The notes beneath the pieces are model-generated. The model ran no database searches. It worked only from the letters and a program-made list of their open reading frames with translations, and was not told the origin of the DNA. This document shows positions 11,560-28,457 of a stretch of DNA of 61,442 nt, in pieces. Origin of the DNA: Bifidobacterium breve (lineage in GTDB: Bacteria; Actinomycetota; Actinomycetes; S36-B12); contig CAMAVT010000001.1 of assembly GCA_945861775.1 (NCBI GenBank), forward strand, positions 1 through 61,442, written 5' to 3'. How positions within the stretch are numbered: the first letter of the stretch is position 1; every line of letters begins with the position of its first letter. The position numbers were made by a program, and so were the translations under genes.

Positions 11560-11681
11560 GTGAACAACCATACACCTAGTTGGTGTATACGAGCCGGCAT
11601 CCAATTTTCATTCACATCACGGGGCAACGTGTCAGGCCCCAAAGTAAGACTGCCCTTAACACACCAACTCAAGGGGGAATC

Positions 11682-11987
11682 ATGGAATCACGTTCTGAAC
11701 GCACCACCAACACATTGATGCTGATTGTCGGCATCCCGCTAGGAACCCTGCTAATGATCTGGACCGCCTGGATAACAGTCACAGCTTTCATCGGTGGTCA
11801 AGCACCGTTCTTCTTTCTGGACTTCGACGGATTCAATCCAATCCGCGGCCTCTTCTGGCTGATAATCGTTGACCCCATAGTCCTCACCGTCGCCTACTGG
11901 ATCTTTATGCTCCTCATGCTGCCACTCATTGGACTTGCAGCAGGTGCCTCCGCTCTAACTGACCGTAAGCGCAACAAGGGGGCATAA
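11682..11987 (+). CDS. small membrane protein (about 3 TM)
   Basis: ATG 11682 preceded by AAGGGGGAA. The product is hydrophobic, with a basic C-terminus. Confidence 0.5.
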   Translation: MESRSERTTNTLMLIVGIPLGTLLMIWTAWITVTAFIGGQAPFFFLDFDGFNPIRGLFWLIIVDPIVLTVAYWIFMLLMLPLIGLAAGASALTDRKRNKGA

Positions 11988-12046
11988 AGAAATTTCAGGC
12001 GAATCCTCTATATTCAGTTTTATAACAAATTGATGTATGGGGGAAT

Positions 12047-13177: not shown

Positions 13178-13386
13178 CAGCGGCTAAAGAAAAGAAAACT
13201 AACCTGTTAACCAAACTAAAGGAGTTGCTTCGAGTCCGTACTGCGTATCAACAGAATTTCTCTGCAGTAAGGGGCGCTGACAGATCTTTGACTCTGCTTG
13301 AGGGAGATCTTTTATTCCCCTTAATGAATTTTGCAGCAAGGTGTGACACGTGCGCACACATGCAGAGCGATGCCTTACATCCCTGA
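13174..13386 (+). CDS. possible small ORF coupled to the preceding gene
   Basis: ATGA overlap with the stop of 12047..13177. 70 aa, no homology recognised. Its 3' end overlaps the convergent exonuclease gene by 12 nt. Confidence 0.25.
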   Translation: MTAAKEKKTNLLTKLKELLRVRTAYQQNFSAVRGADRSLTLLEGDLLFPLMNFAARCDTCAHMQSDALHP

Positions 13387-14520
13387 AGATCCAATTGATT
13401 CAAGAAATTCGTCGATGCTCATGACTGGAATACCCCACTTGCGCGCATTGCCCGCCTTGCCCGAACTGGTTGTGGTGTCAGATGCAACAAGTAGATCGCA
13501 GCCGGACTTTGAGACAGAGCCAATGGGTTGCAGGCCTGCGGCAGCGGACATCTGAGCAAGTTGTTCCTTCGTGATTTCATTGCCACCAACAGTGAACTTG
13601 CCGGTGAAACAGACTCGAGCTCCAGACAAGGACAAAATCTTTGGGACCTCTGTAGGGATGGGAATGACACTCAAGTCTGTTCCTAATGCTGAGCTCACTA
13701 TCGAAATAAGTTCATGTTCTTCCACGGTAATGACCGAGTCTCTCCCAGCTGCCGCGATCAAGGAATTTACATACGCCTGGTGCAATTCATTCTGGCGAGC
13801 GGCATCAAATCCATAGTCAATAGCCAAGTCCTGCAATGCCAGTAATTCGACTTCATCCATTACGAGATCATCTAGATACATGTCCACGACATCCAAGTAG
13901 CTGGCGGCCAGATCATTCGCCGTGGGGTATCGCAAGGTGGCGCGTACCCGATTCAGCGGCATGATGAGGCCACCGACAGAGTCCCTCCGGAGGGTTCGGG
14001 AGTCTGCCGTTGAGTAATCCCCCGCGACATGTACGGGTATCACTTCATTCGGAAGCTCCAACATTCTCACAAGGTGGGCTGTAGCTCGCGCATCGGCTAG
14101 CGCGCGGTGATGTCCTTCGAAAGAAATCCCGTATCGAGAGCACGCAAGATCAAGTTTTTCTCCGGTCAATTTCAGTGTGCAAACTCCTGACCCCGCATCA
14201 AGGCTAAGTTGAGTATGCGAGAACTCAGTTCTAAGGAATCGCGCATCGAATGGAAGGTTATGGGCAACCAATACCGTGCCATTGAGTATGGACGCTAGTT
14301 GCGAAGAAACCTCTACAAATGTGGGGGCTGCCTGAACCATGGATGGCGTTATCCCGTGCACATGAGTGGCACCAATGTCCCTCTGCGGGTTGATCAGCGT
14401 GTCGTATTCATCGATCACTTCAAGAGTAATCCCATCAAGGACAACAACTGCCATTTCTACCACACGATCAGTTTTTCCGAACCCAGTTGTTTCAACATCA
14501 ATGATTGCGAAGTTTGTCAT
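13375..14520 (-). CDS. DEDDh (DnaQ-like) 3'-5' exonuclease with a C-terminal BRCT domain
   Basis: Exo motifs IIDVETTGF, VAHNLPFDARFL, HRALADARATAHL. BRCT-like tail VCFTGKF...DLLVASD...KAGNARKWGIPVMSIDEFL. Starts 17 bp after the Type ISP stop, same strand. Confidence 0.8.
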   Translation of the reverse strand: MTNFAIIDVETTGFGKTDRVVEMAVVVLDGITLEVIDEYDTLINPQRDIGATHVHGITPSMVQAAPTFVEVSSQLASILNGTVLVAHNLPFDARFLRTEFSHTQLSLDAGSGVCTLKLTGEKLDLACSRYGISFEGHHRALADARATAHLVRMLELPNEVIPVHVAGDYSTADSRTLRRDSVGGLIMPLNRVRATLRYPTANDLAASYLDVVDMYLDDLVMDEVELLALQDLAIDYGFDAARQNELHQAYVNSLIAAAGRDSVITVEEHELISIVSSALGTDLSVIPIPTEVPKILSLSGARVCFTGKFTVGGNEITKEQLAQMSAAAGLQPIGSVSKSGCDLLVASDTTTSSGKAGNARKWGIPVMSIDEFLESIGSSGM

Positions 14521-14537: not shown

Positions 14538-17500
14538 CTACTCAATGATTTCAAGTTTAGGCAGGCTGTCAATGATGGCAACTGATTCCATACTGACTCT
14601 CACCATTCGAGCAACTAAATCGATGATGTAGCGGGGGTCATCACTGTAGAGGTTCGGGTCGTTGAGGATTTGTGAATCTTTCTCAATTTTTACTTGGTAA
14701 CGGTCAATGAGCCATTCAATAGCTGATTTCCCATTGACCGTGTAGCGGTAGGCGTCTTCAGGTATCCCTGCGAGTGTGTAGTGGCTATTCACAATGATGG
14801 CCGATTTAGGGTGGTCACCTGCCGACCTGGCGAACTTCATTTTCTCTACGCGTAGTGATGCGGCGCTGGCGTTCGCGGGAGGTAAGCCTTCAAGTTCCCA
14901 AGGTTCCACAGTTTCATAGTTTAGGTGCCATTCGGCCAGAGAGCGGCCTGCCTTGCTGAACCCCCAGACATCCTTGACTAGCGGGATTCGGGGCATCATT
15001 TTGCTGAGGTCTGCCTGATAGCGGTAAATGTATTCGCGGCTGTTAAGGAGGCCGTAGACAAAGTAGAAGATGTCCTCCTTCGTTAGTTCACTCCCATACT
15101 GTTTCTGGTATCGAGCGAGAGTGAAGTCAGTTATGGCGTCATGTTTCCTGAAACGATGAGACTCTTCACTCTCAAAAAGGCTTCCCTCCCCACTCAATTC
15201 CTCATAGACATACAAGGGAAAATAGTGGCCGGGGTCGCTTAGTGTCAGGCTCGGTGCTACTCGGGTAATTAAGGCACCAAAAGGTTTTCTCTGGTCCGCA
15301 ACGTTAACCGATATTCCTATATTCTCCGAATCGACATTGGGGAAAAGTCGGGGGATTTGGTACACCCGATGATTTAATTGCCGGTCGAGATATAAGAACT
15401 GCTTGAAATAAGGCCGATACATCGCCGTGACAATATTCTTTCCTGAAAATGTCGCAGGATTATCCTTTCGCAGGTCCCTAATTAACTCGCTTGTCCAACT
15501 AATTTTCTTGGGGTCGCTTGCATTGGAAATGAACGCCTTTGTTGCCGATTCATCCCTTGGAACTTGCCTTTGTGCACAGTATTCAGTCAATTCCGCGCAC
15601 TGATTGTTGTAGTAGTCGATCATGCGAGCCATATTTGAAGCCAATTCTGATTGGGACGAGTTAACTGCCCATGCGTCGCGATTAGTTTGGACGCCAGAGG
15701 AATAAACATCAAAGAGCGGCTTTGCTGTTTTGTCTCTCTTGTCACCAAGAACCTGATAGGTCTCGTATGTTTCACTGCGCTGATTAATCCAGTCACCTGA
15801 ATCATTTGGTGTGAGTCTTTCCCAGACTCCAGCAGAGACCAATTTTTGTGTATCGATGATTGCGAGTTTTTCTTCGCGGTTGAGGTAGTCACCGATGTCT
15901 TGGTAGTGAATCTGGGCTTGACCTTTATGTCCTTGTTTGCGAACAAGAATTGTAATGGCTACGGGTGTCCGGGAGCCACTGCCAAAGATTTTGCCACCCT
16001 CCTGTCTTGACTTTTCACCTGAGGTTCTTTGGTTCCCTCTGAGGTTAAATACCCAGATGGAACTGAATTCGTTGCTTAAGGATTTCCTGAATCCGTCCGT
16101 CGCGGAACCGTCCACCCAAGCACCGTTAGTCACAAAGGCGACTACTCCGTGGTCGCCGATGCGGTCGGATGCCCAGCGGAATGCGCGAATGTAGGAGTCG
16201 TACAGGGAGTTGAGATTTGTTCCAGTAGAGCGTTCTGTGTAGGTCTTCCGAATACGTCCATCAAGGGTCGGGTAGACCACATTCTTATTACCTTCGTTCT
16301 CTGAGCCCTGCCCAACAGAGTAGGGAGGGTTGCCGACGATAACGCGGATGGGTGCCTTTTTTTGTGCTTCAACCCGTTCGTTGTTGATGGGGAATATGAG
16401 TTTGTCATCGGCATCTCCGTCTTCAAACATTTGGAATGTGTCTGTAAGGACGATACCGTCAAATGGTTCATATTTGCCACCGTGAACACCGTGATATGTG
16501 GCTTCAATATTGATGGCGGCGATGTAGTAGGCGAGAAGAACGATTTCGTTGGCGTGAAGTTCCTTACGGTATTTACGTTCCATCGCATTCGGGTCGATGA
16601 GCCCTGACTGAATGAGTCGCGCGATAAATGTCCCTGTTCCCGTGAATGGGTCAAGGACGTGGACTCCCTCGGTAGAGAGGTCAGTGCTGAATTCTGATTT
16701 GAGTACGGCTTGGACGCTGTTGAGAATGTAGTCAACTACTTCTATCGGGGTGTAAACAATTCCCAGTTTGTCTGCCACTCGAGGGAAGGCGTTTTTGAAG
16801 AACTTTTCATACAACTCAATAATGATGCGTTGTTTACCTTCAGCGTTGTCTATGCCTGAAGCCCGCATCCGCACAGATTCATAAAACTTGTCCAGCGTCT
16901 CGGACTCTTTTTCCAGTGAATGTTCATCCAGGGCATCCAGCATCCGTTCCATAACTTGGGAAACGGGATTCGCTGCAGCGAATGAGTAGTCCTCAAAGAG
17001 GGCGTCAAAGACGGGTTTGGTGATTAGGTGTTGGGCAAGCATTTCAATGGCGTCATCCCGGCTAATACTGTCGTTCAGGTTCCCTCGGAGACCCAACAGG
17101 AATGCGTCAAACTCTGCTTCCAGTTTGGTGTTGTTGTTGTCGAGCAGCGCTTGGATTCGGGTGACGTGGCGTTCTGCGATTTGGGCTATATCTTTCGCCC
17201 AGTCTTCCCAGTAGCGCCTGTCTCCCACTTTTTGAACGAGTTTCGCAAGAATGGCATCACGCCACAAATCCATGTTGGGAAATATGAACGCCTCTTGGAC
17301 CCCTGTCGTTGTGTCGGTCGGTTCGCCATCCCCGTCATCGTTGGGGTCGCCTACTCCGATGACCTGAATTTTATTAGCGGCGTTTTTGTTTAGGTCAATT
17401 TTGTTGACCATTGCGTTGAATCGGTCATCATGGGCGCGTAAGGCTTGTAGTACTTGCCAGACGACTTTGTATCTTTGATGGTCAGCGAGGGCTTCCTCTG

Positions 17501-19328
17501 GGGTCATACCCGCTGGGATACCGATGGGCAAAATGACGTAGCCGTATTTCTTATCTTTATGTTTGCGCATTACGCGGCCAACGGACTGCACAACATCAAC
17601 GGTGGAGTTACGCGGGTTTAGGAACAGGACTGCATCAAGGGCTGGAACGTCCACGCCCTCTGAAAGACAACGTGCGTTGGAGAGGATTCGGCAGGTGTTC
17701 TCTGGCGATTCAGCCTTGAGCCAGTCGAGCCGCTCATTTCGTTGCAACACATTAAACGTTCCATCAACGTGCTGTGTTTCACAAAGGAGTAAGTCAGGGT
17801 CATCCGTAGCTGCTGTGTAATGATTCACAATTTCACCAAACATATCGACCAGCCGTTGTGAGTCTTTAATGCTTCTGGCGAAAGCAACCGCCCGACTCAT
17901 TGGGATGGGATCTTCGATGTTTTCGGGATCTTCCAGTTCACCGTCGGGGCCAGTTTGGAGTACCCGTCGTTTAGAAAGCCCGTTCCAGCAGCCAATAATT
18001 TTGGCTGCGTCATCAAGTTTGAGTTCGTGGTTCTCATCAGCAAGTTGCTCTTGGAATGCTCTTGCGATGTATGACTCGTCAACTGCCAAAACCAGGACCT
18101 TGTAGTCGGATAAAAGGTCACGTTCGACTGCTTCACCAAAACCAAGACGGTAAAACTCTGGGCCGAAAACGCTCTCGTCGTCCATCGACGCAATCACCGC
18201 ACCGATTTCATCCGCTTTCGATTTTGAGTCATCAGAAAACAACCGAGGAGTTGCCGTCATGTAGAGGCGTTTCTTGCCTTTAACGAAATCAGCGTCATGG
18301 ACGCGAACAAAATTAGATTCATCATTTTCTGCGAGTGTTACACCCGTGGTGCGGTGGGCTTCATCGCAAATGATCAAATCAAAATCAGGTAAACCGTCGG
18401 CTTGTGCCTCAGCTACAACTTGGATTGACTGATAGGTAGCAAAGATGACTGTTAGTTTTCCTTCCGAATGTGCTGTGGCGTGCTGGGCAAGACGCATCGG
18501 GTTAGTTGTTGCTGGGTACTGCAAATCGTGGACACTAATGTCCTCTTGTTTCTTACCAATTTTCGTATCCGAGCACACCGCAAATGAGCGCAATGGAATT
18601 TCTGAATAGTTCGTCCACTCACGCAGAGTCTGCTGCAGCAAGGAAATGCTCGGGACAAGAAATAGGACTCTTCCGCCAACTCCTGCCAAGTGTTCAGCGA
18701 TTCGCAGCGACGTGAACGTTTTACCCGTACCGCAGGCCATAATCATTTTGCCTCGGTCACTCGTTTTGAAGCCCTCTGAAACGCTCTCCAATGCTTCCAC
18801 CTGATGGGCACGTAACTCACGCGGAGCGAAATGCTCCAAAGCACTTGGCTGGTCAGCCTTATAAGTTGACCAATCCAGCGTGGATTCTGCAAGGTCCATC
18901 AGGCGAACCCTTGTTACGGGTATTTGTTGACCTTCGAGTGCTTCTTCCGCTTTCGTCGACCAGTGGTCAGTCGTAGAAATAATCATCCGCTGGCTAAATG
19001 GCGCCTTACCTGATTCTGTAAAGAAGGAATCAATATCACCTTTCTGGAGCGCGTGGGCAGGGTCATAAAACTTGGCTTGAATCGCCCACAATTCACTCGT
19101 CTCAGATTCACGGGCAACAAGATCAATGCCCGCATCCCCACGGCCGTCACGGTCAGGCCAATCCGACCACATCCAGACGTCCGAGAACTTCTCCGCCCAC
19201 ATTGAATCCTTTACAAGGAATTCCTTCACAAGGCGTTCAAACGCCGTGCCCTTGTCGCGTTCAGACTGCGCAGCTTGCCGGATATTGGTGAGCACCCCTT
19301 GGAGAGCTTGTGCATTGTTATCTGCCAC
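14538..19328 (-). CDS. Type ISP restriction-modification enzyme (single polypeptide: Mrr-like nuclease, SF2 translocase, N6-adenine methyltransferase, target-recognition domain)
   Basis: 1596 aa. N-terminal PD-(D/E)xK-like block GIDLVA...WAIQAKFY. Walker A MACGTGKT and DEAH box LIICDEAHRT. Methyltransferase motif IV VIVGNPPYSVGQ. Long C-terminal region. Same order and size as LlaGI/LlaBIII-type enzymes. Confidence 0.85.
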   Translation of the reverse strand: MADNNAQALQGVLTNIRQAAQSERDKGTAFERLVKEFLVKDSMWAEKFSDVWMWSDWPDRDGRGDAGIDLVARESETSELWAIQAKFYDPAHALQKGDIDSFFTESGKAPFSQRMIISTTDHWSTKAEEALEGQQIPVTRVRLMDLAESTLDWSTYKADQPSALEHFAPRELRAHQVEALESVSEGFKTSDRGKMIMACGTGKTFTSLRIAEHLAGVGGRVLFLVPSISLLQQTLREWTNYSEIPLRSFAVCSDTKIGKKQEDISVHDLQYPATTNPMRLAQHATAHSEGKLTVIFATYQSIQVVAEAQADGLPDFDLIICDEAHRTTGVTLAENDESNFVRVHDADFVKGKKRLYMTATPRLFSDDSKSKADEIGAVIASMDDESVFGPEFYRLGFGEAVERDLLSDYKVLVLAVDESYIARAFQEQLADENHELKLDDAAKIIGCWNGLSKRRVLQTGPDGELEDPENIEDPIPMSRAVAFARSIKDSQRLVDMFGEIVNHYTAATDDPDLLLCETQHVDGTFNVLQRNERLDWLKAESPENTCRILSNARCLSEGVDVPALDAVLFLNPRNSTVDVVQSVGRVMRKHKDKKYGYVILPIGIPAGMTPEEALADHQRYKVVWQVLQALRAHDDRFNAMVNKIDLNKNAANKIQVIGVGDPNDDGDGEPTDTTTGVQEAFIFPNMDLWRDAILAKLVQKVGDRRYWEDWAKDIAQIAERHVTRIQALLDNNNTKLEAEFDAFLLGLRGNLNDSISRDDAIEMLAQHLITKPVFDALFEDYSFAAANPVSQVMERMLDALDEHSLEKESETLDKFYESVRMRASGIDNAEGKQRIIIELYEKFFKNAFPRVADKLGIVYTPIEVVDYILNSVQAVLKSEFSTDLSTEGVHVLDPFTGTGTFIARLIQSGLIDPNAMERKYRKELHANEIVLLAYYIAAINIEATYHGVHGGKYEPFDGIVLTDTFQMFEDGDADDKLIFPINNERVEAQKKAPIRVIVGNPPYSVGQGSENEGNKNVVYPTLDGRIRKTYTERSTGTNLNSLYDSYIRAFRWASDRIGDHGVVAFVTNGAWVDGSATDGFRKSLSNEFSSIWVFNLRGNQRTSGEKSRQEGGKIFGSGSRTPVAITILVRKQGHKGQAQIHYQDIGDYLNREEKLAIIDTQKLVSAGVWERLTPNDSGDWINQRSETYETYQVLGDKRDKTAKPLFDVYSSGVQTNRDAWAVNSSQSELASNMARMIDYYNNQCAELTEYCAQRQVPRDESATKAFISNASDPKKISWTSELIRDLRKDNPATFSGKNIVTAMYRPYFKQFLYLDRQLNHRVYQIPRLFPNVDSENIGISVNVADQRKPFGALITRVAPSLTLSDPGHYFPLYVYEELSGEGSLFESEESHRFRKHDAITDFTLARYQKQYGSELTKEDIFYFVYGLLNSREYIYRYQADLSKMMPRIPLVKDVWGFSKAGRSLAEWHLNYETVEPWELEGLPPANASAASLRVEKMKFARSAGDHPKSAIIVNSHYTLAGIPEDAYRYTVNGKSAIEWLIDRYQVKIEKDSQILNDPNLYSDDPRYIIDLVARMVRVSMESVAIIDSLPKLEIIE

Positions 19329-19432: not shown

Positions 19433-20044
19433 TTATCGCGCCTCAAATCCAACGAAAGTTTTCTGCCAACTATGTCCGCGCTTGATAAGGTCTGTTACGA
19501 ACTTTTCCTCAGTTAAACGCAGCTTCGCAATGTACTTATCATCTCGATCAACTTCGAGAATCACGAGTGGCCGATCAGGTCGATATGCGGCGAAATACAT
19601 GTAGTCGAACCGTGTAACCATGAGCATGTGTTGTAACTGAGCAAAATAGTAGCTAGGAACTTGTTTGGAGCTAATCGTCTTTTCGTAAGACTTGACTCCA
19701 CACTTAATTTCGTAAATTAGTTTGTTAGTTTTGTCAAGGGCGTCGAGGCTAGCAGCGAGAAATGGTAGCTCTTTGTCTTGCACAACGACGGGTCTCAGCT
19801 TTATTCCGTCACGGCGCTCCAAGTCTTTTCGAGCTGGTTCTTCTAGCCGTTGACCTTCTCTAGTAGCGCTATTACCACTAAATTCCTTAACCATTCCGAG
19901 TTTCTGATCCATAAGACTCTTAGGGCTGGCCCATGGATTTTCCCCCATGATGGTCGGCGCCTCAGAGGCGCCAACAACGCCTCTCCTCCAATCTAGCCAC
20001 TCTCTCGATCCTTGTTTCAGGCTTTCGTTTATGTAGAAACTCAC
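19433..20044 (-). CDS. YqaJ-like (lambda-exonuclease fold, PD-(D/E)xK) nuclease
   Basis: QGSREWLDWRRGVVGASEAPTIMG N-terminus and ASLDAL...IYEIKCG catalytic block. Confidence 0.75.
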   Translation of the reverse strand: MSFYINESLKQGSREWLDWRRGVVGASEAPTIMGENPWASPKSLMDQKLGMVKEFSGNSATREGQRLEEPARKDLERRDGIKLRPVVVQDKELPFLAASLDALDKTNKLIYEIKCGVKSYEKTISSKQVPSYYFAQLQHMLMVTRFDYMYFAAYRPDRPLVILEVDRDDKYIAKLRLTEEKFVTDLIKRGHSWQKTFVGFEAR

Positions 20045-20086
20045 TTCCCCCGCCTCCCCGTTGTGTTTCTGATGGTTTATAGCTTG

Positions 20087-21454
20087 CTACTCCCGAATAG
20101 CCTCGTAAAAGGCAATTGCTTCTGGATCAACAAGTATGTCACTCCGTTCCAATTTACGAGACAGTGTCAAGTTTTCTAGAGATCGACATCTAGATAGCGC
20201 CACATATGTTTGCCCAGTTTCAAAGGCACCGCGTCCCAACTCCAGGTGAACACGATCCAGAGTTAATCCCTGGCTCCTATGGACCGTCATAGCCCAAGCA
20301 AGGTGAACTGGAATTTGCGTGTATGTGCCTATAACTACCCTTTGTATTGAATCTGTCTCTGAATCCCAGACGTAGTCGAATTGCTCCCAAGTGTTAGCCA
20401 CAACCTCATGGACCTTGGATTGGCCGTGAAGGACAATTCGAATTTTGTCTTCCAGGAGCTCAGCCACGATTGCCACTGATCCATTTACCCAATTAGCAGT
20501 GTTGTTCGCAAGTACCACTTGAGCGCCAACTCGAAGTTTCACGTCGCCTGGAACTGGGAGGTGACTCTCTTTGAAGTCTCCTCTCAAAATTCCGGAGTAA
20601 GTTCTGTCAGGTCCCGGGAGGGCTGCCAAGCGTTCTTGATTAACTCGATCAACATCAGCATTTCTTGGAGAAAGCCAGACGGTGCCGTCTGTGGGCGAGC
20701 CAAGCCCATGGCACCTTTCGTTAATGAGAGTCAAAGCCCGTCCAAGATTCTTTCCTTCACGAACATCTGCCAAAAGATCTACAAAACTTTGATCCGTTTG
20801 TCTGAATGCCTTCGTCAGTTCAATTACTTCAAATTCCGAATCACGAATTGACTTTGCGGCAAAGAACTTTGGGGATGCGTATTTCTCTTTGAAAAGATGT
20901 TTCACGTTCTGATTAATAATTGGTGGCAACTGGAATAAGTCTCCGACCATGACAACTGAAATGCCGCCGAACGGTTTTTCTCTACCAATGTTCATCTTGA
21001 AGAAGTCACTCATGGCATCCAGTACGTTTGCATTGACCATTGAAACTTCGTCAATAATCAATAAACTCGCCTTGCTTACAGGTGACTTTCGATTCAAACG
21101 AATATCACTGTCCACAAGCCACGCTGGCGGAAAACCGCAAATCGAGTGGATGGTTTTGCCACCAATAGTTAGAGCCGCAATTCCCGTCGGAGCTGCAACG
21201 ATGACGGCACCTTCGTGTTTTTCTTGAAGCCACTTGATGAGCGTGCTCTTACCCGTTCCTGCACCGCCCGTCACGAGAACCATTCCTTGACCTCGATTAA
21301 TCGCTTCTTCAACGCTAAGGTACTCGGGGATGATCTCTATCCCGCTCAAATCACTCTTGGAACTAGGGCTTTGCTGCTTAGGACCCGCGGCTGTAGTTGA
21401 CTTGCTAACATCTGTCGAAAGCCGACCGAATGTCCACTTCCCTTTTTTGATCAA
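20087..21454 (-). CDS. Pif1/RecD-family SF1B DNA helicase
   Basis: Walker A VTGGAGTGKST, Walker B LLIIDEVSMV, Pif1-type VVMVGDLFQLPPI, motif VI AMTVHRSQGLTLD. Confidence 0.8.
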   Translation of the reverse strand: MIKKGKWTFGRLSTDVSKSTTAAGPKQQSPSSKSDLSGIEIIPEYLSVEEAINRGQGMVLVTGGAGTGKSTLIKWLQEKHEGAVIVAAPTGIAALTIGGKTIHSICGFPPAWLVDSDIRLNRKSPVSKASLLIIDEVSMVNANVLDAMSDFFKMNIGREKPFGGISVVMVGDLFQLPPIINQNVKHLFKEKYASPKFFAAKSIRDSEFEVIELTKAFRQTDQSFVDLLADVREGKNLGRALTLINERCHGLGSPTDGTVWLSPRNADVDRVNQERLAALPGPDRTYSGILRGDFKESHLPVPGDVKLRVGAQVVLANNTANWVNGSVAIVAELLEDKIRIVLHGQSKVHEVVANTWEQFDYVWDSETDSIQRVVIGTYTQIPVHLAWAMTVHRSQGLTLDRVHLELGRGAFETGQTYVALSRCRSLENLTLSRKLERSDILVDPEAIAFYEAIRE

Positions 21455-21631
21455 TGAACGCCCCCTTCGTTGATTTCACAATACACCTCTTGTCTTGCCC
21501 TTTTTATTGAGGAGAGTTCGCTTCGAGTGAATCCCTCGGCTCGTAGCGCTTACACTTCTGGCAACGCTCTACTAGGGCGAGTTCGATAATTGATCTGGTC
21601 TTGTTGCGATTTGAAAAATGGGTGAGACGAA

Positions 21632-21868
21632 TTAATCCACATTCAGTGCAACGTTGCGGCTAAAGCGAGCCAAGGAGTTGAGATCCCTGTCAATTCCCAT
21701 ATCTGAGTTGAATATCTCGACTTCTTGCAACACGCGCTGGTATCGCAACTCTCTCACTAATGCCCGTTCAATCACCGAGGCCCGACTTAGGGCAGCACTG
21801 GAAGCGACTAATTCGTCCAACGAATTAACCAATTGGGCGGGGAGTCGGACAGCAACTTTAATGCTCAT
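21632..21868 (-). CDS. ribbon-helix-helix (CopG/Arc-type) DNA-binding protein
   Basis: MSIKVAVRLPAQLVNSLDELVASSAALSRASVIERALVREL matches the RHH pattern (beta strand plus two helices). Confidence 0.7.
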   Translation of the reverse strand: MSIKVAVRLPAQLVNSLDELVASSAALSRASVIERALVRELRYQRVLQEVEIFNSDMGIDRDLNSLARFSRNVALNVD

Positions 21869-22121
21869 GATAAGAAGGTACCGAATTGATATTCATAATG
21901 CAATGCGACGTTTAGCCGCCGCTGGGCTTATTCCGCTACCTTTCCCAACACTTGCTTCAGAATCAAAATTCTCTACTCTTGGAGGTATAAGGAATCTTCC
22001 AGGAGGCGGACTTACTGTTTTCGATATTCAAACTATGACCGTCGATACAATTACACGGATGCGGCCAGATCATTGGACGCAAAAGTGCCTCGTCGGGCAC
22101 TGACTCAGATGAGGGGGGAAC

Positions 22122-23951
22122 ATGGGTTTCCAAACGCCACTGTATGAATTGGGCGAATATTTGAAATGGACGACAAGCGGCAAGATTCAGTTGCCTGACT
22201 TTCAACGGAGCTACAAATGGGAAGACGAACGTATCCGTCAATTACTCGTCACAATATTGCGCGGTCATCCACTTGGCGTAGTCATGCTTTTAAAAACAGG
22301 CAACGAGCAGATTCGATTCAAGCCACGTCCGATTGAGGGCGCAATAATCGAGCCAGGAACTCCAGCGGACTCTTTACTTTTAGATGGCCAGCAAAGATTG
22401 ACATCGCTGACGCAGGCTTTAACCGGCGACGGTGTAGTGAACACGATGGATGGTCGTGGGAAAAAAATGATGCGGCGTTATTACATCGATATCGAGCTGG
22501 CCCTACAGGGAGATGATCGGATAGATGAAGCAGTGCTGTCCGTACCCGGCGACGGCATTGAGCGAACCAACTTTGGCAGAGAGATTGTTAGAGATGTTTC
22601 AACAGCGGATAAGGAGCGCGAGGCTGGACTTTTCCCCTTCAGGCTTCTCTATGGCGGTGCAGAAACAGTTACCTGGCTTTTTGCGGTAGATGACAAAGAG
22701 CAAGCCAGCCAATTTCATGCCAATGTGATTCAGCCGGCGAATACCTACAACATTCCGGCGATTGAGCTGGACGAGTCGACCAGTAAATCTGCCGTGGCGA
22801 CCGTATTCGAGAAGGTGAATACGGGCGGACTTGCTCTCAATGTTTTCGAGCTACTGACAGCTACTTTCGCCGGTGACAAAGAATACTTCGAAAAGCACGG
22901 GACGGATTTCAGGCTAAATGATGATTGGAAAGAGACTCAGATCCAGTTCAGCGCGTACCCAGTTCTTGCTGAACTAGAAAACACGGACTTTCTGCAAGCT
23001 TTAACACTGCTGGCAACGCGCAAGAGAAATCTAGCCAGCAATGATCCCCGACCGCCAGCGATCAGCGCCAAGCGGGAGGACGTGCTTAAGCTCTCACTTG
23101 ATGATTACCTTGAGTGGGTAGAGCCATTGAGAGAAGCATTCAAGTGGACGAGCATCTTCCTTGCGGAGAGACATATTTTTGAAACTCGATTCTTGCCCTA
23201 CCCAAAACAACTTGTTCCACTTGCTGCAATTCGAGCAATAATGGGTAAAGATGCGGATCTGGTCGGACCCAGAGGAAAAATCGGTCGTTGGTTTTGGTGT
23301 GGAATTTTAGGTGAGTTGTATGGCGGAGCAAGTGAAACTCGATATGTGAGGGACATTGAGCAGGTCCCCGTGTGGGCCGTCGGTGACGCTTCTACAGCAA
23401 CACCAAATACCGTTAACGATGCGACATTCGTGGAATCGCGATTGCACTCATTGCGCACTCGCCAGGCAGCAGCATATAAAGGAATCTATTCACTTATTGT
23501 GGGTAATGGAGCTAGGGATTGGATGGAGGGCCAAGAGTTCGACAAGGTCGAATATGTGAACCTTGCAGTAGATGTTCATCACATCTTTCCCCAAAAATGG
23601 TGTGAGACAAATACCATTGATGATGAGCGTCGCGAGAGCATAATTAATAAAACCCCGCTCTCGGCACGCACGAATCGCACAATTGGTGGTGCCGCTCCGT
23701 CATCTTATGTTGAAGTTCTTGAAAAGCGTGCTCAAATTGAGAGTGCACTCTTGGATGATTTACTCACAACACATTGTGTAACTCCTACATACCTTCGTGC
23801 CAACAATTTTGATGATTTTTTCATTAGTCGACGGGAACAGCTCTGCCTGCTGGTGGAAGGAGCGATGGGTAAATCTGTCCCACGGGATGTTGATGAAGGG
23901 TCTTCACAGGAAGATTCATCGCAGTTTGAGAATCAATCAGACGATAATTGA
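22122..23951 (+). CDS. GmrSD-family Type IV (modification-dependent) restriction endonuclease, DUF262 + DUF1524
   Basis: N-terminal LPDFQRSYKWE and LLDGQQRLTSL (DUF262). C-terminal VDVHHIFPQKW...INKTPLSARTNRTIG (DUF1524, HNH-like). Confidence 0.85.
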   Translation: MGFQTPLYELGEYLKWTTSGKIQLPDFQRSYKWEDERIRQLLVTILRGHPLGVVMLLKTGNEQIRFKPRPIEGAIIEPGTPADSLLLDGQQRLTSLTQALTGDGVVNTMDGRGKKMMRRYYIDIELALQGDDRIDEAVLSVPGDGIERTNFGREIVRDVSTADKEREAGLFPFRLLYGGAETVTWLFAVDDKEQASQFHANVIQPANTYNIPAIELDESTSKSAVATVFEKVNTGGLALNVFELLTATFAGDKEYFEKHGTDFRLNDDWKETQIQFSAYPVLAELENTDFLQALTLLATRKRNLASNDPRPPAISAKREDVLKLSLDDYLEWVEPLREAFKWTSIFLAERHIFETRFLPYPKQLVPLAAIRAIMGKDADLVGPRGKIGRWFWCGILGELYGGASETRYVRDIEQVPVWAVGDASTATPNTVNDATFVESRLHSLRTRQAAAYKGIYSLIVGNGARDWMEGQEFDKVEYVNLAVDVHHIFPQKWCETNTIDDERRESIINKTPLSARTNRTIGGAAPSSYVEVLEKRAQIESALLDDLLTTHCVTPTYLRANNFDDFFISRREQLCLLVEGAMGKSVPRDVDEGSSQEDSSQFENQSDDN

Positions 23952-24089: not shown

Positions 24090-24989
24090 CTATTGATTGT
24101 GAAAAACAGCGAAGCGCTCCGCTAAACGTTCTCGGTCAGGTTGCTTGGATTTGGCGGGTGGAATCCAGAGTGATCGCATGTTCATTTCTTTGATCCCATG
24201 CTCGAGCATCGGACCGTCTACTTCTTGAAGAATGTCGTCACGGATGTGTACTTTGTAGTCAGGGTCGATTCCCACAATGTTGATGTCATAGGCCGTGTGG
24301 TGGATTTTGCACAAGCTCAGGCCGTTCGTCACTGATGTGGATGAGGCCTCTTCGCGATCAGGAGTGATGTGAGCGGCATCTAGGAGACTGCCGTGGGCAA
24401 GAGCGCAGATTGCGCATTTCGTTTCATAGGCGGAAATTACTTGGGCCCGGAACGCCGGTTGGTGCAGGCGCTGTCGCATCAGCCGTTCGGCGTATTTGCG
24501 CTCGATAGCTGATTCTGATTGTGCGGCGACAGCTAAGGATAGGTCGGGGGCAATCAAGCAGTAGCGCTCCTTGGGAAAATCGCTAATGATGAATACCTTG
24601 TATGGGACGTAACTCCCTGCGGATTGTTGGCGGAACCACAAAAGTGGTAACTGAAGTTCCAAGGCCTTTCGCATCTTGGAGTTTTTGCCCTCGGTACTTC
24701 CTGATTGATAGTCATACCTCCAGAGGCCACCATGCATTTCTTGGTCGTCGTACTTACCGGAGAGAGTTGTGTTGATGGAAAGCGTTGCCCGTAGTGGATC
24801 CCCGAATGGCCAAGATGCTCCAGGATTCCAAATTCCTCCCTGCACATCGATAACCCTTATGTCTTTACCGGCATAGGAGAAATTTCCAAGTTCGTTGCGC
24901 GAGAGCATTCCATCAGATGAATTAGCGTGAGCAATAACCGCGTCGATCAGATCATCACGAAATTCTTGCTCTTCCCCCACGGTCCACAC
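24090..24989 (-). CDS. HNH endonuclease with an uncharacterised N-terminal domain (possible modified-DNA reader; Type IV-like)
   Basis: C-terminal CAICALAHGSLLDAAHITPD...NGLSLCKIHHTAYD. The reader role for the ~170-aa N-domain is inference only. Confidence 0.6.
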   Translation of the reverse strand: MWTVGEEQEFRDDLIDAVIAHANSSDGMLSRNELGNFSYAGKDIRVIDVQGGIWNPGASWPFGDPLRATLSINTTLSGKYDDQEMHGGLWRYDYQSGSTEGKNSKMRKALELQLPLLWFRQQSAGSYVPYKVFIISDFPKERYCLIAPDLSLAVAAQSESAIERKYAERLMRQRLHQPAFRAQVISAYETKCAICALAHGSLLDAAHITPDREEASSTSVTNGLSLCKIHHTAYDINIVGIDPDYKVHIRDDILQEVDGPMLEHGIKEMNMRSLWIPPAKSKQPDRERLAERFAVFHNQ

Positions 24990-27913: not shown

Positions 27914-28159
27914 TCTTTCTGTGTGGTGGTGTCACGTCTCGTAGTGCTGCATGGGACCGACATTTCTTAGTTGCTTAGATTTCAGGGCGGTTGTCCACAA
28001 CCTTAATTTGTCTCTAGCCTTCCCTTTTCTTGCGCATTAGCGTGTGGTTCGTTGAGTTTTCTTGCTAGTGCGCTGTTGCCTCTTGGTCCCTGACCATAAA
28101 CCTCGCCTCCCGTGAAGTGTGCGGGAAATTTGTCGAGGGGAGTGGGGGTGATGGGAAGG

Positions 28160-28330
28160 ATGAACATTCCTTCGCCTAAAGAGAAAGGCCCAGCCAATTG
28201 GCTGGACCTACTCGTAAGGTTCGCCCTAGACAAGCGAATCTTAACACGGGTTGGAGTAATTGCGTCAAGCATTGCTTTACGTGAATTACTTCGATGGCTG
28301 CTTCACATGATCAGAAATGATTGGTGGTGA
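28160..28330 (+). CDS. 56-aa small protein, paralog of the two 53-aa ORFs at 42950-43488
   Basis: MNIPSPKEKGPANWLDLLVRFALDKRILTRVGVIASSIALRELLRWLLHMIRNDWW. Gap-free alignment to the 53-aa peptides, 23/53 identical by hand. Conserved SD GGGGGTGATGGGAAGG precedes the ATG. Confidence 0.55.
   Translation: MNIPSPKEKGPANWLDLLVRFALDKRILTRVGVIASSIALRELLRWLLHMIRNDWW
28178..28231 (-). ncRNA. predicted ~55-nt cis-antisense RNA of the small ORF
   Basis: Extended -10 TGTTAAGAT (complement of 28238-28246). Hairpin (complement of 28187-28208) followed by TTTCTCTTT. Prediction from sequence only. Confidence 0.3.
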
Positions 28331-28457
28331 GTCAGGTGGTGACGGCTTTAATCCGTCACCACTTCCCCACATCCCGAACGAGAAAATGAGAGTGCCGCTC
28401 TGGGATAGTCTCGTGGTGTGATGTGTTGGGCATTGATAATGCTGATGTGGAGGGGCG

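Follow-up and report, generated by a model that had tools for sequence, protein, structure and literature searches.

The stretch of DNA analysed here, 61,442 nucleotides long and referred to as the window, covers positions 1 to 61,442 of the forward strand of contig CAMAVT010000001.1 (GenBank assembly GCA_945861775.1), filed under Bifidobacterium breve. Three co-oriented genes on its minus strand, located between a GmrSD-type gene and a Type ISP restriction-modification gene, encode a ribbon-helix-helix (RHH) protein, a Pif1-family helicase of superfamily 1B (SF1B) and a YqaJ nuclease with the lambda exonuclease fold. A first-pass annotation, made from the sequence alone, had regarded them as a trio that could serve defence or satellite replication, with the RHH protein as its likely autoregulator. 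The three genes, the gaps between them (177 bp from RHH to helicase and 42 bp from helicase to nuclease, both exact), the intact motifs and the two flanking restriction genes are all as it described. The functional unit, however, is the helicase-nuclease pair and not the trio.

Together with a leader, the two genes form a 2.13-kb cassette (window 19433-21565, minus strand). Its borders were mapped by blastn of the window against four close relatives, L014, L037, L015 and L016, which share 93%, 89% and, for the last two, 79% nucleotide identity with the window. Homology sets in at window 21565-21569 in all four, 111 nt 5' of the helicase start, and upstream of this point the window sequence is unlike that of any of them. 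At the other end the homology of L015 and L016 stops at 19437, in the stop codon of the nuclease gene, and that of L014 and L037 runs on into the Type ISP gene. An 8-kb Druantia-like insert separates the RHH and helicase genes in L014; it contains a DruE-like helicase (PADLOC DruE, 2e-177) and a protein of 1114 amino acids (aa) without a family match. The same pair lies upstream in L015 and L016, where NucS-like, Mrr and HsdM genes take the place of the Type ISP gene downstream. The leader is conserved and probably holds a promoter; scans for promoters and terminators gave signals at chance level. The cassette is present as a single copy in this 2.26-Mb, 85%-complete genome, and both genes are under purifying selection, with a ratio of non-synonymous to synonymous substitution rates (dN/dS) of 0.08-0.12 for the helicase and 0.09 for the nuclease.

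The DruE-like helicase (1532 aa) and its 1111-1114-aa partner are found at L014 1946-9885 and L015 1321-9251 and as a fragment in L037, divergent from the Pif1 gene. The partner has no match in Pfam, PADLOC or NCBIfam.

Helicase and nuclease

The helicase is matched by Pfam PIF1 (PF05970) at 7.8e-29 (101.3 bits, cut-off 25.9) and by PHROG 325, 'Dda-like helicase', at 6e-73. Its full length can be aligned with the solved bacterial Pif1 structures 8bns, 7bil, 6s3e and 5fhd (3e-87 to 3e-70; 8bns at 3e-87, 6s3e at 2e-76 across residues 59-454), and human PIF1 is matched at 1.6e-46. Motif invariance was judged across homologues of 50-100% identity. Among 26 homologues of the helicase, the invariant segments are G63-T71 (GAGTGKST, with K69), D135/E136, P161-F-G-G164, G171-D...Q-L-P-P178, T390/H392/S394-Q-G396 and Y417...R422. 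By the usual definitions of the SF1 and Pif1 motifs, Walker A, Walker B, the other SF1 motifs and the Pif1 signature segment, which ends in PFGG and lies between motifs II and III, are all present.

The nuclease is matched by Pfam YqaJ (PF09588; 3.2e-21, 76.6 bits, cut-off 22), by TIGR03033 (7.5e-36, 123.5 bits, cut-off 68) and by PHROG 434, 'RecE-like exonuclease' (2.5e-43). Residues R20, D101, E112 and K114, the last two belonging to the EIK motif E112-I-K114, do not vary among 27 sequences. When a profile built from 27 nuclease homologues is aligned with lambda exonuclease, the alignment spans the full length of the profile and places these four residues on R28, D119, E129 and K131. R28 belongs to the 5'-phosphate-binding pocket of lambda exonuclease, and R20 is its equivalent. 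The AlphaFold2 model of the nuclease has a predicted local distance difference test score (pLDDT) of 93.7 and a template modelling score (TM) of 0.77 to lambda exonuclease (3sm4/1avq). Foldseek returned 3sm4, 1avq and 3sz4 at E ~1e-10 and TM 0.74-0.80, which represent lambda exonuclease and LHK-Exo. Each protein is an ordinary member of its own enzyme family; it is the pairing that is unusual.

Both proteins also possess conserved terminal segments. Residues 1-47 of the Pif1 subclade comprise an N-terminal K-T-F-G-Q-V peptide and, after it, a linker of low complexity, and residues 189-199 of the nuclease form an invariant C-terminal R-G-H-x-x-Q-x-x-F-x-G tail. The peptide and the tail look like docking peptides. 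An N-terminal docking peptide common to both types of helicase that accompany the nuclease (described below) was also considered and rejected, as none was found.

Partners, relatives and the RHH gene

Searches anchored on the nuclease yielded 99 loci, or 66 groups once dereplicated at 95% nuclease identity; open reading frames (ORFs) in these loci were called by a simple greedy script. A helicase of superfamily 1 (SF1) is directly adjacent to YqaJ in 62 of the 66 dereplicated groups. In 34 groups the gene directly upstream of YqaJ, in the same orientation, is of the Pif1 type, at gaps of -65 to +48 nt as called; the commonest arrangement is a 4-bp overlap, and the larger overlaps reflect over-extended calls of the nuclease ORF. 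YqaJ adjoins another protein in 28 groups, a Upf1-like helicase-PLD protein of ~1000 aa with an SF1 helicase (AAA_11, AAA_12), a PLD nuclease and a zinc ribbon, which gives partial matches to the Mokosh proteins MkoA (8e-59) and MkoC (1.4e-37) in PADLOC. The remaining four groups consist of one informative locus without a helicase and three that are too short to tell. Of the proposed trio, the helicase and YqaJ are genuinely co-conserved and the RHH gene is not.

The partner types are clustered on the nuclease tree, whose well-supported branches require at least five switches between them. On the helicase tree, a Pif1 orthologue from L010-13 is nested within the YqaJ-linked clade and is accompanied by an RNase_T-type exonuclease instead of YqaJ. 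This orthologue (56% identity; L010 9300-11407, also L011-L013) lies in another restriction island without YqaJ; the gene in front of it, with a 4-bp overlap, codes for an RNase_T/DEDDh exonuclease of 234 aa. The constant feature is an SF1 helicase plus an exonuclease. In a helicase-anchored contig scan, 79 of the 80 loci with generic Pif1 genes (36-47% identity) had no YqaJ, and the one exception belongs to the subclade. Among the ten fusion proteins examined of the best 150 nuclease-family representatives there is no Pif1-YqaJ fusion; these ten are YqaJ-MORN or DEDDh-YqaJ fusions, or lack a second Pfam domain.

Several variants were observed among the relatives. Fusions of a DEDDh (RNase_T) 3'-5' exonuclease with a YqaJ 5'-3' exonuclease, 572-786 aa long, occur in Verrucomicrobiota (L203 8001-10211, L204-L206; P0291, P0276), where their neighbours resemble ordinary metabolic genes. 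Other, close YqaJ relatives, 574-756 aa long, carry extended MORN-repeat arrays as a fusion (P0246, P0249, P0256, P0259, P0269, P0271). In one subclade of Pif1-YqaJ pairs, represented by L085 (10615-11449), L066, L070, L075, L077, L078, L086 and L091, the pair is followed by two further tightly coupled genes of 79 aa and ~194 aa (gaps of 2 and ~10 nt); neither product has a match in Pfam, PADLOC or NCBIfam, and the arrangement is possibly a four-gene variant. A sister clade of stand-alone YqaJ genes (L207-L256, e.g. L208, L220 and L212) is found in Nitrospirota, Proteobacteria, Chloroflexota and others, next to genes for GGDEF proteins, a HAD hydrolase, acetyl-CoA synthetase and glycine cleavage, and once next to an ERCC4 nuclease.

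The RHH gene has a different history. Its product is less firmly assigned than the other two: it scores 19.9 bits with Pfam RHH_1 (E 7e-4), slightly short of the 20.5 cut-off, and matches NCBIfam YlcI/YnfO_N at 3.9e-6, and by inspection it has the layout beta-strand, helix, helix. A 78-aa homologue is intact in the same-genus genome G141 (contig 51; L198 2105-2341), and the copy in G143 (contig 12) is an N-terminally shortened ORF of 66 aa. On these two contigs, a small membrane-protein gene, the RHH gene and a small repeated module resembling a toxin-antitoxin system follow one another within ~1.2 kb (L198 1623-3019; L197 1440-2650), corresponding to window 11630-11990, 21632-21928 and 28037-28366. 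The helicase, the nuclease and the other island defence genes are all absent from this hotspot in G141 and G143; the whole ~18-kb island is missing there and its flanks are adjacent. Since the hotspot segments adjoin in these genomes without defence genes, the window's ~18-kb island is two insertions, at ~12.0-21.6 kb and 21.9-28.0 kb, flanking a pre-existing RHH gene. The hotspot is also variable on contig 52 of G141. It offers a clean example of how a small resident gene may pass for a component of an inserted system.

That the three genes constitute one operon regulated by the RHH protein is already refuted as far as a conserved trio is concerned, and we regard it as barely credible. The common orientation and the 177-bp gap do fit such an operon, and RHH is a real gene under purifying selection (dN/dS ~0.25). 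On the other hand, an RHH homologue is lacking in all other helicase-nuclease loci except L014; 33 of the 34 Pif1-YqaJ groups and every locus at 50-60% identity have none, and in L014 the Druantia-like insert places it 8 kb from the helicase. G141 and G143 keep the gene without the pair, and the recombination junction at window 21565 falls between RHH and helicase. Between the window and L014, moreover, synonymous divergence (dS) is 0.44 for RHH and 0.18 for the helicase. Because homologues are lacking in the other loci and dS is higher than that of the helicase, neither the trio nor the dedicated autoregulator proposed by the first-pass annotation is supported.

Island neighbourhoods and distribution

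Of the genomes searched, none of the 21 from the same genus has the nuclease, and two of the 389 others in the order do. Records labelled Actinomycetota, Nanopelagicaceae, Flavobacteriales and Polynucleobacter contain homologues at 51-62% identity, and a relative at 41% was found in a metagenome-assembled genome of Verrucomicrobiota. In metagenome sampling dominated by freshwater lakes, the pair is a rare accessory cassette that moves horizontally among freshwater bacteria and crosses phyla.

Recognised restriction or defence genes are present in at least 24 of the 34 groups with at least 3 kb of flank, which is a raw count without a matched background. The defence types in question include Type I, Type ISP, GmrSD, HNH, Mrr, McrB-N/NOV, C5 methylase, Druantia-like and DISARM-like genes, and the commonest Pfam domains of the 77 neighbour families are ResIII, Helicase_C, DEAD and GmrSD_N. 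The module accordingly resides in restriction and defence islands, as had been supposed; recurrent defence neighbours in unrelated genomes and a patchy distribution, the two signs on which guilt by association relies, were both found. GmrSD-like genes lie one or two genes from the helicase-YqaJ module in 10 of the 66 groups, next to both helicase types, and the neighbouring GmrSD proteins are only 27-38% identical to that of the window. This proximity may reflect a functional partnership.

The loci with GmrSD-like (DUF262/DUF1524) genes nearby are L099, L092, L063, L112, L093, L004, L067, L089, L026 and the window itself. A recurrent set of three genes was also observed beside helicase-YqaJ modules or a lone Pif1 orthologue (L009 9440-18410, L048 1-6346, L084 8530-16400). 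It consists of a UvrD-PD-(D/E)xK helicase-nuclease (~920 aa), an N6/N4 DNA methyltransferase and a large ResIII-type helicase; the methyltransferase is annotated in L009 and assigned by clustering in L048 and L084, and the ResIII helicase is annotated in L009 only, with different clusters in L048 and L084. The idea that the UvrD-PDDEXK neighbour is a housekeeping adnB gene marking a chromosomal hotspot is doubtful, as it recurs beside the methyltransferase and ResIII genes and so resembles a member of a restriction-like set more than adnB.

Table 1. Window positions of the cassette and of the genes around it.
Feature	Position	Strand	Remarks
Pif1-family SF1B helicase gene	20087-21454	minus	455 aa; TTG start; GGGGG ribosome-binding site; cassette gene 1
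Lambda-exonuclease-fold (YqaJ) nuclease gene	19433-20044	minus	203 aa; GTG start; cassette gene 2
Conserved helicase leader, 111 nt	21455-21565	minus	with ribosome-binding site; left border of the mobile cassette
RHH gene, 78 aa	21632-21868	minus	outside the cassette; resident of the chromosomal hotspot
Type ISP restriction-modification gene	14538-19328	minus	104 bp downstream of the nuclease; separate defence gene
DEDDh exonuclease-BRCT gene	13375-14520	minus	PADLOC candidate PDC-S48, 5.6e-88
GmrSD-type Type IV restriction gene	22122-23951	plus	divergent from RHH; Pfam GmrSD_N 4.8e-27
HNH gene	24090-24989	minus	island neighbour

The Type ISP gene downstream of the cassette carries the Pfam domains Type_ISP_C, ISP_coupler, Mrr_cat_2 and ResIII and is matched by PADLOC REase_MTase_IIG at E=0. 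It is absent from L015 and L016, which retain the cassette. L037 has an internal 4.5-kb deletion of the gene (L037 2570-2578 against window 14765-19241) that leaves 86 nt of its 5' end and 226 nt of its 3' end, and it too retains the helicase and nuclease genes, as well as the DEDDh-BRCT gene. The latter possibly supplies a third activity; it directly follows YqaJ in L024 and L097 and stands beside a Type ISP gene in L049. L024 and L037 had suggested an insertion of the Type ISP gene between YqaJ and DEDDh-BRCT, which is rejected for this lineage because the end remnants in L037 show an internal deletion.

Possible functions and known systems

Pif1-family helicases translocate 5'-3' on single-stranded DNA, and enzymes of the lambda exonuclease type are ring-shaped trimers that thread a DNA end and digest its 5'-phosphorylated strand. 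Applied to the cassette, this enzymology suggests that the helicase would load on a 5' single-stranded tail or a DNA end, translocate 5'-3', and unwind the DNA or strip proteins off it. The nuclease, which retains the 5'-phosphate pocket and the catalytic residues, would digest the 5'-ended strand, its assembly into a ring being assumed from the family. Because the two genes are linked and inherited together and no catalytic residue has been lost, the pair could represent a split Dna2-like or RecD-plus-nuclease machine for degrading ends, and the other strand could be removed by a DEDDh 3'-5' exonuclease, which is nearby in several loci or fused to YqaJ. Possible targets are linear foreign DNA, namely injected phage genomes, rolling-circle intermediates and fragments produced by Type ISP, GmrSD and HNH enzymes; the module could attack linear phage DNA by itself or assist adjacent restriction enzymes by destroying the fragments they make. 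That the two proteins cooperate, with this polarity and on this target, and that they protect against phage, is what we infer.

We propose, with moderate confidence, that the pair is a mobile helicase-driven module that degrades DNA ends 5'-3' and has a role in defence. Among the roles considered, defence is taken as the most likely because the distribution is accessory and bound to islands and because the Pif1 helicase is interchangeable with a Mokosh-like protein. Several points weigh against this proposal. Guilt by association is the sole link to defence, and restriction genes dominate freshwater actinobacterial islands, which makes the neighbourhood unspecific as evidence. In many phyla the genes of the sister YqaJ clade stand alone among housekeeping genes, which suggests a chromosomal repair role for the wider YqaJ family. 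An AdnAB-like helicase-nuclease gene pair is encoded on contig C19 and leaves no obvious gap for the cassette, and a mechanism for discriminating self from non-self is not evident.

Part of this evidence points to a repair function, which we consider the main rival explanation, though a rather unlikely one. The pair would then be an accessory of DNA repair or recombination that performs RecQ/RecJ- or Dna2-like resection, producing 3' tails for RecA; it would travel with restriction systems and help the host to survive self-restriction or double-strand breaks, without attacking phage. Resection requires exactly a 5'-3' helicase and a 5'-3' exonuclease, the same enzymology as defence, and the pair adjoins DNA-cutting systems specifically; the solitary sister clade points the same way. 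What speaks against repair is, on the one hand, the extreme patchiness of the nuclease in the order and the genus and its location in islands that are absent from sister genomes, and on the other hand the AdnAB-like pair already encoded and the exchange of the Pif1 helicase for a helicase-PLD protein resembling a defence family. The related idea that the pair replaces a missing RecBCD or AdnAB was rejected on account of the AdnAB-like pair on contig C19.

Two further explanations would derive the pair from mobile elements. It might form the backbone of a satellite or mobile genomic island, with a part in the element's replication, transfer or recombination and with the defence genes as cargo. 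This is improbable in our view, even though the cassette is constant while its neighbours vary and an integrase lies near L028 and near L009, the latter with a Pif1 orthologue without YqaJ. YqaJ-like genes in Pseudomonas flank island defence hotspots and count among the likely core genes of transducible islands (PMC12629846, PMC12595487). The window's ~18-kb island, however, contains no integrase, primase, Rep or relaxase gene, and phage integrases make up just two of the 77 neighbour families. The cassette occupies many unrelated chromosomal sites with different defence genes on both sides, and not the edge of an island. Relatives in plasmid collections reach at most 36% identity; in phage collections none exceeds 40%, the values being at most 35% in IMG/VR and, among 50,697 phage genomes, 32% for the nuclease and 38% for the helicase. 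The satellite-replication alternative offered by the first-pass annotation is likewise unsupported, with no primase or Rep gene, no close relative on viral contigs and few integrases.

Far less credible still is a descent by decay from a phage Red/RecET-type recombination module, the annealase having been lost. Such modules typically carry an enzyme of the YqaJ/lambda-exonuclease family, and the PHROG 434 match agrees with this origin. Against it, RecT and ERF were undetected in the 85%-complete genome, in keeping with the earlier remark that an annealase is lacking, and neither annealases nor virion or phage structural proteins were found in the Pfam-annotated neighbourhoods or among the 25 commonest domains of the 77 neighbour families. 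Identity to phage and IMG/VR sequences is low (at most 35%), and the strong purifying selection and the conserved pairing with a helicase do not suggest decay. In the loci examined the pair is thus neither phage-borne nor next to an annealase gene, the two features by which a prophage recombination module would be recognised. The window's own island consists of restriction genes and has none from phage.

Returning to the defence proposal, a broader and decidedly tentative version of it would make the YqaJ clade the constant core of a modular, unnamed defence family, a portable RecBCD-like degradosome finishing DNA already cut by restriction. In that version the Pif1 and the Mokosh-like helicase-PLD partners would be interchangeable, and a DEDDh 3'-5' exonuclease would sometimes be linked or fused. 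If this were true, the degradosome would be a post-restriction clean-up accessory of GmrSD, Type ISP and Type I systems, which would strengthen restriction against phages that repair or protect their ends. The interchange of partners and the repeated adjacency of GmrSD-type genes raise the idea that some island genes may be restriction helpers and not stand-alone systems.

Bacterial immunity has repeatedly arrived at pairings of a helicase with a nuclease, and to our knowledge no named system uses a Pif1 motor or a nuclease of the lambda exonuclease type, which is otherwise known from phage recombination. The YqaJ and RHH proteins match no family in PADLOC-DB 2.0, and the helicase gives partial matches to helicase cores there (PDC-S68, 8.5e-17; type IV RecD, 1.8e-16; MkoA, 7.7e-4). 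No PADLOC 2.0 system is defined by the helicase or the nuclease, which agrees with the earlier statement that the combination has no name, and the literature searched in full text for Pif1 and YqaJ with defence terms and for PDC-S48 does not name a Pif1-YqaJ pair. If the cassette does protect against phage, it would be a small, well-defined and biochemically tractable system in which both folds have solved relatives. Its source organisms, freshwater Actinobacteria, are abundant and hard to culture, and their defences have been little studied.

Among defence systems, Hachiman (HamAB), Gabija (GajAB), Nhi, Hna, Mokosh and DdmDE share the logic of a helicase motor and a nuclease in defence islands. 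The cassette proteins differ in having an SF1B motor and a lambda-exonuclease-type nuclease, and they have no homology to the defining proteins of these systems. The description of the genes as a split Nhi or Hna hence holds as an analogy of logic and not as a sequence relationship to those PADLOC models. Mokosh is nearer in one respect, as the alternative partner of the nuclease is a Mokosh-like helicase-PLD protein with partial MkoA and MkoC matches. In MIMIVIRE, the R354 nuclease is lambda-exonuclease/Cas4-like and matches the cassette nuclease both by sequence and by fold (5yet/5yeu, 7e-11; Foldseek, 1e-8). R354 is encoded near a helicase in a proposed mimivirus defence locus, and the defence role of MIMIVIRE is itself debated. 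It differs from the cassette in its giant-virus host, in the different class of its helicase (R350) and in R354 being twice as long as the cassette nuclease.

Outside dedicated defence, Dna2, RecBCD (RecD with the RecB nuclease), AddAB/AdnAB and RecQ-RecJ would be the functional analogues, in the sense of a 5'-3' SF1B motor and a PD-(D/E)xK nuclease acting at DNA ends; the cassette, which has no iron-sulphur or Chi-recognition parts, is accessory and consists of two small genes. The phage lambda exonuclease/RecE/YqaJ enzymes share the fold of the cassette nuclease (TM 0.77), its D-ExK site, the 5'-phosphate Arg and a similar size. Phage Red/RecET-type modules pair such an enzyme with an annealing protein, whereas the cassette nuclease, at no more than 35% identity, is paired with an SF1 helicase in chromosomal defence islands. 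Bacterial Pif1 proteins (Bacteroides BaPif1 5FHD, Thermus oshimai 6S3E, Deferribacter 7BIL, and 8BNS) share full-length homology, the SF1B motifs and the signature segment with the cassette helicase, which is set apart from them as a distinct subclade (at least 50% identity) by its K-T-F-G-Q-V peptide and linker and by the exonuclease gene coupled to it.

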